A DNA stretch of 64,000 nt. Origin: Escherichia coli. GTDB lineage: Bacteria; Pseudomonadota; Gammaproteobacteria; Enterobacterales; Enterobacteriaceae. Each line of letters begins with the position of its first letter. The stretch's first letter is position 1. The translations under genes were made by a program, and so were the position numbers. The notes under the pieces were generated by a model. It was given only the letters and a program-made list of their open reading frames with translations. It had not been told where the DNA came from and did no database searches. The stretch lies in NCBI RefSeq assembly GCF_044324785.1, contig NZ_CP172127.1. One strand, given 5' to 3'. Positions 32,342 to 37,533 of the stretch are shown here, piece by piece.

Positions 32342-32444
32342 TTCCCCTTAATCCAGCAAACATAAAAGCCAACCTTAAGAACTTAAGGTTGGCTTAATTT
32401 TGCTTTGCGAGCATATGCGCACTTTGTTCGATGGAAACACCGTG

Positions 32445-34753: not shown

Positions 34754-34762
34754 TTGAATTTG

Positions 34763-35854
34763 ATGCGTTTTCTGCGCAGACCAATATCGCTGCGCCAACG
34801 GCTGATATTGACCATCGGGGCCATTTTGTTGGTGTTTGAGCTGATCAGCGTCTTCTGGCTATGGCATGAAAGTACCGAGCAGATTCAGCTGTTTGAGCAG
34901 GCGCTACGCGACAATCGCAACAACGATCGCCACATCATGCGTGAGATCCGCGAGGCGGTCGCCAGCCTGATTGTCCCCGGCGTCTTTATGGTCAGCCTGA
35001 CGCTATTTATCTGCTATCAGGCGGTACGCCGCATCACCCGGCCGCTGGCGGAGCTGCAAAAAGAGCTGGAAGCGCGCACCGCCGACAATTTAACGCCTAT
35101 TGCCATTCACAGTGCCACCCTCGAAATCGAAGCGGTGGTTTCGGCGTTAAACGATCTGGTCAGTCGCCTGACCAGCACGCTGGATAACGAAAGGTTGTTT
35201 ACCGCTGACGTCGCGCACGAACTGCGAACGCCACTGGCGGGGGTGCGTTTGCATCTGGAACTGCTGGCGAAAACGCATCACATTGATGTAGCACCGTTAG
35301 TGGCACGGCTTGATCAGATGATGGAGAGTGTCTCCCAGCTACTGCAACTGGCGCGTGCCGGACAGTCATTTTCTTCCGGGAATTATCAACATGTAAAACT
35401 GCTGGAAGATGTCATTCTCCCCTCGTATGACGAACTCAGTACCATGCTCGACCAGCGCCAGCAAACCCTGCTATTGCCAGAGAGCGCCGCCGACATCACC
35501 GTTCAGGGTGATGCAACCCTGCTGCGGATGTTATTGCGAAACCTGGTAGAAAATGCCCATCGTTACAGCCCGCAAGGCAGCAACATTATGATTAAGCTGC
35601 AAGAAGATGGCGGAGCGGTCATGGCCGTTGAAGATGAAGGACCGGGTATTGATGAGAGTAAATGCGGGGAGTTGAGTAAAGCGTTTGTACGTATGGACAG
35701 CCGTTATGGCGGGATTGGTCTGGGGTTAAGTATTGTCAGCCGCATTACACAGTTGCATCACGGGCAGTTTTTCCTGCAAAACCGGCAAGAAACTTCCGGC
35801 ACGCGGGCCTGGGTACGGCTGAAGAAAGATCAGAACGTGGCAAACCAGATATAA
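34763..35854 (+). CDS. basS: Sensor kinase BasS (PmrB)
   Basis: 363 aa from the ATG at MRFLRRP; ORF track begins at an upstream TTG (34754). Confidence 0.85.
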   Translation: MRFLRRPISLRQRLILTIGAILLVFELISVFWLWHESTEQIQLFEQALRDNRNNDRHIMREIREAVASLIVPGVFMVSLTLFICYQAVRRITRPLAELQKELEARTADNLTPIAIHSATLEIEAVVSALNDLVSRLTSTLDNERLFTADVAHELRTPLAGVRLHLELLAKTHHIDVAPLVARLDQMMESVSQLLQLARAGQSFSSGNYQHVKLLEDVILPSYDELSTMLDQRQQTLLLPESAADITVQGDATLLRMLLRNLVENAHRYSPQGSNIMIKLQEDGGAVMAVEDEGPGIDESKCGELSKAFVRMDSRYGGIGLGLSIVSRITQLHHGQFFLQNRQETSGTRAWVRLKKDQNVANQI

Positions 35855-35919
35855 AGAAAGCTGCTGACCACCAGCACGCTGAACACGGTAGTTAAACTTT
35901 CATAAACACGGTTTTTCAT
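35830..35919 (-). CDS. pmrR: PmrR small membrane protein (29 aa)
   Basis: Hand-translated minus-strand ORF MKNRVYESLTTVFSVLVVSSFLYIWFATF; overlaps the basS 3' end antisense. Confidence 0.6.
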   Translation of the reverse strand: MKNRVYESLTTVFSVLVVSSFLYIWFATF

Positions 35920-36030
35920 TGCACTCTCCTCCGTTAACCTGGAGGAGAGTATGCGCGTCAGAGATTAAGTGAACCTTAAGAGTTCAATTGGCCTGATAAG
36001 ACAGCGTCACATCAGGCCATCCGTTTCAGC

Positions 36031-37533
36031 TTATTCATCAATTCGCGGATGTTGCTGCACCAGGCGGGTACGTTTCGCCTGCAAATCGGCAATCTCGTGG
36101 TCAATATCATCGATTTTCTGCTCGATATTATCGTAATGCTCGACGAGAATTTCCTTCGCTTCCTGTATATCTGACGCCGCCGGTGTCGCACCTTTCAACG
36201 GACGATTCGCCGTCTCTTTCATGGTTACGCCGGTGATTAAACCAACCACCGCCACTACCATCAGGTAATAGGCAGGCATCATCAGATTCTGCGAGCTTTC
36301 GACCAGCCAGGCCGCCAGTGTTGGCGTCAGACCGGCAACCAGCACCGAAATATTAAATGCCGCCGCCAGCGCGCTGTAACGGATATGCGTCGGGAACATC
36401 GCTGGCAAGGTAGAAGCCATAACGCCCGTAAAGCAGTTAAGGATCACCGCCAGCATCAGTAACCCGGCAAAAATCAGGCCGATGACGTTACTGTTAATCA
36501 GAATAAACGCCGGGATCGCCAACACAAACAGTGCAACACTACCAAGTAGCACAAACGGACGACGGCCAAAACGGTCACTCAGCAAGCCCATCACCGGCTG
36601 GACAAACAGCATACCGATCATAATGGCGATAATAATCAGCACCCCGTGGTCTTCGGAGTAATGCAGGTTATGCGACAAATAACTCGGCATATAGGTCAGC
36701 AACATGTAGTAAGTCACGTTGGTGGCAATTACCAGACCAATACATGTCAACAGGCTGCGCCAGTGTTTGGTGGCAATCTCTTTAAACGAGACTTTCGGGC
36801 CATCCTGCAAACCTTCGCGGTCGCCCTGCTCCAGTTTATCAACATGCTGCTGGAACGCCGGGGTCTCTTCCAGCGCATGGCGCAGGTAAAGCCCGATAAT
36901 CCCTAACGGCAGAGCAATAAAGAACGGAATACGCCAGCCCCAGTCGAGGAAGTTCGCTTCGCCGACAATGGTCGAAATTAACACCACCACGCCCGCACCC
37001 AGCACAAACCCGGCAATAGAACCGAAGTCCAGCCAGCTGCCCATAAAGCCACGTTTACGGTCAGGGGAGTATTCCGCAACAAATATCGACGCCCCGGTAT
37101 ATTCACCGCCGACCGAGAAACCTTGTGCCATCTTACAGATCAACAGCAGAATCGGTGCCCAAATACCAATCGTGTCGTAGGACGGTATTAAGCCAATACA
37201 GAACGTACTGATCGACATAATCACAATAGTGATAGCGAGGATCTTCTGGCGACCATATTTATCGCCCAACATACCAAAGAAGAGCCCGCCAAGCGGTCGA
37301 ATCAGAAAGGGAACGGAGAAAGTGGCAAGTGCAGCAACCATCTGCACGCTGGGGTCAGCCCCCGGGAAAAAAACTTTACCTAATGCGTAAGCAACAAAAC
37401 CATAAACACCAAAATCGAACCATTCCATTGCATTACCCAGTGATGCTGCGGTAATGGCTTTACGCAGTTTACCGTCATCAATAATGGTGACATCACGAAG
37501 GGTAATCGGTTTTACTTTTTTCCTTTTCAGCAT
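36031..37533 (-). CDS. proP: Proline/glycine betaine osmoprotectant symporter
   Basis: 500 aa MFS transporter with C-terminal coiled coil; start at MLKRKKVKP. Confidence 0.9.
   Translation of the reverse strand: MLKRKKVKPITLRDVTIIDDGKLRKAITAASLGNAMEWFDFGVYGFVAYALGKVFFPGADPSVQMVAALATFSVPFLIRPLGGLFFGMLGDKYGRQKILAITIVIMSISTFCIGLIPSYDTIGIWAPILLLICKMAQGFSVGGEYTGASIFVAEYSPDRKRGFMGSWLDFGSIAGFVLGAGVVVLISTIVGEANFLDWGWRIPFFIALPLGIIGLYLRHALEETPAFQQHVDKLEQGDREGLQDGPKVSFKEIATKHWRSLLTCIGLVIATNVTYYMLLTYMPSYLSHNLHYSEDHGVLIIIAIMIGMLFVQPVMGLLSDRFGRRPFVLLGSVALFVLAIPAFILINSNVIGLIFAGLLMLAVILNCFTGVMASTLPAMFPTHIRYSALAAAFNISVLVAGLTPTLAAWLVESSQNLMMPAYYLMVVAVVGLITGVTMKETANRPLKGATPAASDIQEAKEILVEHYDNIEQKIDDIDHEIADLQAKRTRLVQQHPRIDE

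Follow-up and report, generated by a model that had tools for sequence, protein, structure and literature searches.

The antisense reading frame at the 3' end of Escherichia coli basS is pmrR, a gene with putative orthologues across Enterobacteriaceae and a conserved leader hairpin that may restrict its translation

What is encoded on the strand opposite the 3' end of basS (pmrB), and what decides when it is expressed? In the 64,000-nt window of E. coli DNA analysed here, the basS sensor kinase gene (34754..35854, plus strand) converges on a minus-strand reading frame that the original prediction had taken for a 29-residue hydrophobic peptide. The frame lies at exactly the coordinates proposed, 35830..35919 on the minus strand; it opens with ATG, runs for 29 codons and closes with TGA (product MKNRVYESLTTVFSVLVVSSFLYIWFATF). 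The gene upstream of it, proP (36031..37533, minus strand), is co-directional. Because 89 open reading frames of at least 20 residues overlap the surrounding 6-kb stretch, a frame of 29 residues is uninformative by itself. What places this one beyond chance is the combination of an NCBIfam match, a Shine-Dalgarno (SD) sequence, a PmrA box, conservation in other genomes and the distribution of variability over codon positions.

The peptide matches the NCBIfam PmrR equivalog NF033224 over model positions 1-29 of 29 with 72.7 bits (E = 1.5e-20), well above the curated cutoff of 30 bits. A 401-nt query around the reading frame matches 5408 of 5426 complete E. coli genomes, where the locus is annotated pmrR and the product, encoded between proP and pmrB, carries the RefSeq name "LpxT activity modulator PmrR" (WP_000797656.1). 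Public protein records list the identical peptide as "LpxT activity modulator PmrR" or "Putative membrane protein PmrR ... PMRR_ECOLI"; a Pfam family for it was not found. The N-terminus is basic (MKNR), a single transmembrane helix is predicted, and the C-terminus carries an aromatic motif, F21-x3-W25-x2-T28-F29. Compared with PMRR_ECOLI and NF033224, the sequence, the position after proP and convergent on pmrB, the PmrA-box promoter, the length of 29 residues and the single hydrophobic helix are all the same, with no substantive difference. The original prediction had named the peptide as PmrR; there is no counter-evidence to this identity, and the frame is almost certainly the known E. coli gene pmrR, encoding a 29-residue single-pass inner-membrane peptide. 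The finding is correct and already known, and for E. coli it adds nothing new.

A PmrA box had been anticipated somewhere around 35920-35990. Within that interval, a perfect box (CTTAAGGTTCACTTAAT, pattern YTTAAK-N5-YTTAAK) is located at 35964..35980 on the minus strand, 44 nt upstream of the pmrR ATG. Chance would give 0.08 matches to the pattern in 64 kb; there are two, and the second (32382..32398, plus strand) lies upstream of eptA, in the same regulon. An inferred -10 hexamer, CATACT (35948..35953, minus strand), follows the pmrR box at a distance of 10 nt, and at eptA the promoter is built likewise, with a hexamer (GAGCAT) 10 nt after the box. Among the window and the 55 other loci described below, a hexamer with A2 and T6 sits at this 10-nt offset in 55 of the 56 sequences, and at 11 nt in the other one. 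A strict sigma-70 scan found no promoter at the pmrR leader, as expected for an activator-dependent promoter in which the PmrA box replaces the -35 element. Taken together, the sequence features predict a pmrR promoter with its PmrA box in an activating position, 10 nt before a -10-like hexamer. Since the hexamer is held 10 nt from the box, promoter geometry would place the PmrA-dependent transcription start 7-9 nt after it, at 35939..35941 on the minus strand; a literature search for a mapped pmrR 5' end found none. In published work, the E. coli eptA-pmrAB-pmrR locus is drawn with the gene overlap and with a PmrA box in the pmrR promoter, and removal of that box from PmrA-constitutive E. coli renders cells polymyxin-sensitive and deoxycholate-resistant, phenotypes reversed by deletion of lpxT (PMC8129183). 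Low Mg2+ elicited no response from a reporter that contained the sequence immediately upstream of pmrR (PMC11429745).

The conservation of this arrangement was assessed in 80 basS loci, one per GTDB species, that were found by peptide patterns from E. coli BasS and fetched; the patterns matched no Salmonella locus, although the Rfam consensus described below suggests that Salmonella shares the layout. The set comprises 63 loci of the Enterobacteriaceae type and 17 from Pectobacterium, Rahnella, Serratia, Rouxiella, Ewingella and relatives. Each locus was searched by position, for an antisense small reading frame and a PmrA box just past the basS stop. The window and 55 of the 63 Enterobacteriaceae-type loci contain the same module, in which a PmrA box is followed after 40-46 nt by the start codon of a hydrophobic 28-33-residue frame; the full order is box, 10 nt, -10 hexamer, hairpin, SD and reading frame. 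In all 55, the frame lies at the basS 3' end in convergent orientation. The module is absent from the other 8 Enterobacteriaceae-type loci, in several of which uvrB ends close to basS (for example, L009, L012, L014 and L032), and from 17 of 17 loci in the second group. The peptide is therefore kept in related genomes, the point on which the original prediction had staked itself.

Within the module, the peptide length is tightly held, with 30 residues in 43 loci and 29 in 10 (53 of 55 at 29-30 residues). Variability at the first, second and third codon positions is 1.04, 0.65 and 1.41 bits, respectively. This ordering, third above first above second, is a coding signature as read from the alignment.

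How, then, does the reading frame relate to basS, with which it shares sequence? The proposed antisense overlap with the basS 3' end is borne out: the two coding sequences share 25 nt (35830..35854), tail to tail. An overlap of 25 bp between pmrR and pmrB has already been described for E. coli (PMC8129183, PMC8004244), in one case as a "small ORF (90 bp) ... with 25 bp overlapping region" (PMC8004244). Within it, a single-nucleotide polymorphism at 35834 couples residue 29 of PmrR (F or Y) to residue 361 of BasS (N or Y), such that other Escherichia have Y29 with Y361 where the window has F29 with N361. Across genera the overlap ranges from -8 to +57 nt. It is 25 nt in Escherichia, 4 in C. amalonaticus and Raoultella, 22 in Klebsiella and 57 in Pseudocitrobacter, and zero or negative in many others. 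Because its length varies to this extent, the overlap is incidental, a by-product of tight convergent packing, and it was rejected both as the functional point of the locus and as a conserved, selected feature.

The same stretch is also represented in Rfam. The family RF02052, "Enterobacterial sRNA STnc630", matches at full length at 35823..35988 on the minus strand (178.5 bits against a gathering score of 55). This match invites the reading that the locus acts mainly through RNA, either as a non-coding sRNA or as an antisense excludon partner that lowers basS expression, with the reading frame incidental. Two further observations are in line with it: pmrR-basS is listed among E. coli convergent excludons, with a transcript overlap reported from RNA-seq coverage (PMC12288877), and both convergent promoters are PmrA-activated, so the two transcripts must collide or pair. 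The content of the Rfam model points the other way. The PmrA box, the hairpin and the entire reading frame from AUG to UGA all fall within its consensus, which translates to MKNRIYESLTTVFSVLIVSSFLYVWVTTY; STnc630 and pmrR are the same locus. Although typed as an sRNA gene by Rfam, the model spans a promoter element and a complete translated frame, and because it does so RF02052 corresponds to an mRNA or 3'-UTR region and not to a non-coding RNA. With a conserved frame under coding constraint and the promoter box inside the model, STnc630 did not qualify as a non-coding RNA gene; a literature search found no mention of it. More broadly, frame, length and start are kept while the nucleotides diverge, the extent of the overlap with basS is free to vary, and complementation of a pmrR deletion fails once a stop codon replaces the ATG (PMC11429745). 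That the locus acts mainly through RNA is very improbable on this evidence, and the start-codon mutant has already largely refuted RNA as its sole function. An antisense effect could accompany that of the peptide.

With the peptide as the product, attention turns to its leader. Between the promoter and the start codon, the minus strand can fold into a hairpin (35922..35951, -19.4 kcal/mol). Its 5' arm (TACTCTCCTCC, 35951..35941) overlaps the -10 hexamer and the discriminator, its loop is AGGTTAAC, and its 3' arm (GGAGGAGAGTG, 35932..35922) contains the pmrR SD (GGAGGAGAG, 35924..35932, minus strand), whose GGAGG core stops 8 nt short of the ATG. Nearly all of the 56 sequences have this hairpin. 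Across an alignment of 55 sequences, 85% of cells are paired, whereas sliding the partner column lowers this to 42-58%, and none of 500 shuffles reaches the observed covariation score. Individual positions illustrate the exchange: one pair occurs as AU in 17 loci, CG in 17, GC in 6 and GU in 6, and Klebsiella and Raoultella show a compensatory change in the two arms (ACTATCCTCA/TGAGGATAGT). RNAalifold recovers the core of the helix, and the consensus structure of the Rfam STnc630 model includes the same helix. These data point to an inverted repeat, predicted to sequester the SD, that is conserved through compensatory change.

The position of the predicted start relative to this repeat suggests what the hairpin may do. 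Starting at 35939..35941, PmrA-dependent transcription would begin at the top of the stem, and the resulting mRNA should lack the anti-SD arm. The mean folding energy is -15.0 kcal/mol for RNA that extends from the -10 hexamer, compared with -1.5 kcal/mol for RNA that begins at the predicted start. RNA that reads through from the upstream gene would carry both arms. In this way the hairpin may act as a filter on the site of initiation, masking the SD on read-through RNA while transcripts initiated at the PmrA promoter, inside the hairpin, alone are translated. Such a filter would add to the account of pmrR as a PmrA-controlled peptide gene and would not replace it.

Read-through RNA is likely, given a co-directional upstream neighbour, in many genera no room for a terminator, and in E. 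coli an upstream transcript reported to end inside pmrR. In Escherichia and C. amalonaticus this neighbour is proP; most other genera have uvrB in its place. The stop of the neighbour often lies -4 to 45 nt from the PmrA box, too close for a terminator to fit. A REP-like palindrome (GGCCTGATAAGACAGCGTCACATCAGGCC, 35990..36018) lies between the proP stop and the box in the window. SEnd-seq shows that the gene upstream of pmrR terminates within the pmrR coding sequence (PMC10687069). This 3' end fits a terminator-like hairpin with a T-rich tail inside the coding sequence (TGCTGGTGGTCAGCA, 35852..35876, minus strand; hairpin 35876..35862), which is the probable 3' end of proP transcripts. The in-frame terminator-like hairpin is found in 4 of 6 Escherichia sequences and, with unrelated sequences, at 4 other loci; as it is not kept across genera, it was dropped as a conserved device.

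Further observations bear on the filter. The single locus that lacks an adjacent co-directional upstream gene (L059) has essentially no leader hairpin (-5.1 kcal/mol), a natural experiment that amounts to one case. The Rfam model begins 8 nt upstream of the PmrA box and so describes an RNA with both arms; if its boundaries are exact, which they may not be, this would fit an RNA derived from read-through and not one from the PmrA promoter. In line with such a filter, PmrR made at the wrong time is harmful (PMC11429745). Against these points, the key step, the position of the start, comes from promoter geometry, and comparisons of the two strands do not settle on which of them the hairpin acts. 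Among the core pairs, 39 are G.U and 13 A.C, an excess that favours the pmrR strand and is confounded by the constraint on the SD. Folding is stronger on the pmrR strand in 28 loci and on the basS strand in 18 (Wilcoxon p = 0.063). The strand tests lean to the pmrR strand and are not decisive. We hold the filter tentatively, at somewhat less than an even chance.

The main rival to this filter assigns the hairpin to the other strand, as a 3'-end stabiliser or terminator of the eptA-basRS mRNA, with the complementarity to the pmrR SD a by-product. The sequence downstream of pmrB does matter in E. coli. With 86 bp of it, Xu et al. found ~315-fold less pmrB mRNA and no colistin resistance, whereas 103 bp gave partial and 126 bp full resistance (PMC8004244). 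Mapped onto the window, the +86 construct ends at 35940, in the hairpin loop; the +103 construct ends at 35957, with the hairpin and the -10 hexamer complete; and the +126 construct ends at 35980, which the primer CTTAAGGTTCACTTAATCTC confirms is precisely where the PmrA box has its first base. Loss of mRNA and resistance in a construct that breaks the hairpin, and partial resistance once the hairpin is complete, are as a role at the basS 3' end would have it, and the hairpin is nearly as stable on the basS strand (mean -12.8 kcal/mol, against -13.9 on the pmrR strand). Such a role is nonetheless harder to reconcile with the equal half-lives of pmrB mRNA from the +86 and +126 constructs (PMC8004244). 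It also sits uneasily with G.U pairs that favour the pmrR strand, and in E. coli, Klebsiella and Raoultella the basS-strand hairpin is not followed by a T-run. Moreover, because the +126 construct ends at the first base of the box, what it gains over +103 is the pmrR promoter, with no additional RNA structure. The stepwise gain in colistin resistance tracks the stepwise completion of the pmrR leader and promoter, a correspondence that fits either reading; overall, a 3'-end role for the hairpin in the basS mRNA appears unlikely.

The initiation-site filter proposed for pmrR has a precedent in the fold-back inhibition of IS10 and IS50 transposase. There, an inverted repeat pairs the ribosome-binding site with sequence upstream of the gene's own transcription start, so that only transcripts arriving from outside form the hairpin; in IS10, this protects the transposase gene from outside promoters. 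The anti-SD logic is alike, with the difference that in pmrR the transcription start is a predicted one. Unlike the insertion sequences, pmrR has a 5' arm that also serves an activator-dependent promoter as its -10 and discriminator.

The comparison across genera also bears on how far the PmrR family extends. When E. coli PmrR was used as a tblastn query, it returned the Escherichia/Citrobacter class and a few weak matches. The 30-residue class, which this query missed, could be recovered only by position. It occurs in Klebsiella, Raoultella, Kosakonia, Kluyvera, Phytobacter, Pseudocitrobacter, Pluralibacter and other genera, and is represented in Klebsiella pneumoniae by MQKINFREYLAVATALVIIVAFFHQWVLTF. 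These peptides fall below the NF033224 cutoff of 30 bits or are unmatched by the model, and public records name them only "hypothetical" or "uncharacterised". By hhalign, the 30-residue class aligns end to end with the Escherichia/Citrobacter class (probability 96.5%, E = 7.6e-10). Both share an F-x3-W motif near the C-terminus, in which the F and W are invariant in the two classes, and the 30-residue class has the promoter and leader design of pmrR. On the strength of these resemblances, the 30-residue peptides are read as unrecognised putative PmrR orthologues.

The combined proposal is that the PmrR family reaches beyond Escherichia, Salmonella and Citrobacter, and that its -10 and discriminator are kept complementary to the SD such that only PmrA-initiated transcripts can be translated. 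It is plausible, with the balance tilted slightly against its holding in full. The wider family and the promoter-embedded anti-SD hairpin, both beyond the published work that we found, constitute two modest leads.

The role of the peptide itself can be outlined from these features together with earlier work. Phosphorylated PmrA (BasR) would bind the direct-repeat box at 35980..35964, which would substitute for a -35 element 10 nt upstream of the weak -10 hexamer and send transcription towards basS. The resulting peptide would insert into the inner membrane and inhibit LpxT, which transfers a second phosphate onto lipid A at position 1. With LpxT inhibited, position 1 would be left free for phosphoethanolamine addition by EptA, and the expected outcome is polymyxin resistance, paid for in deoxycholate resistance. 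The biochemical evidence for LpxT inhibition is said to come from the original Salmonella PmrR study (Kato et al. 2012), and Salmonella PmrR reportedly also lowers Fe3+ binding at the surface, giving negative feedback on PmrB. The present analysis demonstrates the reading frame and the family it belongs to, the box and the promoter layout, and the conservation of these features. That pmrR depends on PmrA, is translated, associates with the membrane and is linked to LpxT is taken from published work on E. coli and Salmonella.

Consistent with a translated membrane peptide, Ribo-RET in low Mg2+ detects initiation at PmrR, PmrR-6xHis is recovered in the membrane fraction, and complementation of a pmrR deletion needs the start codon (PMC11429745). 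Growth defects in low Mg2+ caused by either deletion or overexpression of pmrR persist without lpxT (PMC11429745), so PmrR may have targets besides LpxT. MgrB, which is PhoP-activated and inhibits PhoQ, and MgtS are likewise small single-pass inner-membrane peptides induced by two-component systems, and all three act on a membrane protein and feed back on envelope signalling (PMC11429745). They have no sequence relationship to PmrR. The route also differs, in that MgrB binds its kinase directly, whereas PmrR targets the enzyme LpxT and reaches its own kinase indirectly, via surface charge.

PmrR is of biological importance: by determining how far position 1 of lipid A carries phosphoethanolamine or diphosphate, it governs how polymyxin resistance is traded against resistance to bile salts. 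Should the anti-SD hairpin function in the way proposed, it would illustrate how a small reading frame in the 3' UTR of another gene remains under its own regulator, and it would reinterpret the unexplained requirement for sequence downstream of pmrB (PMC8004244). If the Klebsiella-type peptide is a working PmrR, a modulator of colistin resistance would be missing from Klebsiella annotations and from resistance-gene panels.

On the minus strand of the window, a leader hairpin at 35922..35951 pairs the Shine-Dalgarno sequence of pmrR with the -10/discriminator region of the PmrA promoter. This pairing is maintained across genera through compensatory changes, and a hairpin lies at the equivalent position in 55 of the fetched basS loci (for example, 4163..4190 in locus L022). 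The hairpin should form only in transcripts that begin upstream of the PmrA promoter. Separately, RNA covering the full interval between the proP stop codon and the pmrR AUG has a much stronger fold than shuffled sequences do (z = -5.5), and a REP-like palindrome, GGCCTGATAAGACAGCGTCACATCAGGCC, lies at 35990..36018, between the PmrA box and the proP stop.

The hairpin and promoter also bear on the subcloning ends used by Xu et al. (PMC8004244), who describe a 'critical pmrB 3'-downstream region'. When these boundaries are placed on the window, +86 falls at 35940, in the hairpin loop; +103 at 35957, immediately beyond the -10; and +126 at 35980, exactly where the PmrA box begins. The 'critical' pmrB region therefore coincides with the intact pmrR leader and promoter.

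A second hairpin, terminator-like and followed by a T-rich tail, is located within the pmrR coding sequence (35852..35876, minus strand), ~20 nt before the stop codon. Its position fits the published end of the upstream-gene transcript inside pmrR; a transcript ending there would contain a pmrR ORF without a stop codon. This terminator-like hairpin is not conserved beyond part of Escherichia.

Because pmrR and basS overlap, one A/T SNP at 35834 alters both proteins simultaneously: this window encodes PmrR F29 and BasS N361, and other Escherichia species encode PmrR Y29 and BasS Y361. PmrR position 27 is likewise coupled to BasS position 363.

Beyond Escherichia, a PmrA-box-driven 30-aa ORF homologous to PmrR is found at the pmrB end in Klebsiella, Raoultella, Kosakonia, Kluyvera, Phytobacter and other genera. 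Examples among the basS loci include L021 (4050..4157), L022 (4068..4160), L013 (4080..4172), L017 (4078..4170) and L058 (4077..4169), with others besides. The Klebsiella-type peptide is named only 'hypothetical' in public records and scores below the NCBIfam PmrR cutoff. Both the small ORF and the PmrA box are absent from eight Enterobacteriaceae-type basS loci (L009, L012, L014, L032, L035, L046, L047 and L081), among them the Pseudescherichia vulneris group and Superficieibacter. Several of these have the end of uvrB near basS, an arrangement suggesting secondary loss of the module.

The record behind L048 bears the title Chryseobacterium sp. 18061, yet its basS-pmrR-uvrB locus is enterobacterial and near-identical to that of Citrobacter sp. 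18056 (L041), which belongs to the same project. Either the organism is probably mislabelled or the assembly is contaminated. In the window, the eptA promoter (32374..32398, plus strand) has a third CTTAAG half-site (32374..32379), which immediately precedes the two repeats of the canonical PmrA box.

Finally, the Rfam family RF02052 ('sRNA STnc630') matches along the entire length of its model at 35823..35988 (minus strand; 178.5 bits). That model takes in the PmrA box and the leader hairpin together with the entire pmrR ORF, so what Rfam types as an sRNA is in fact the region of the pmrR gene.
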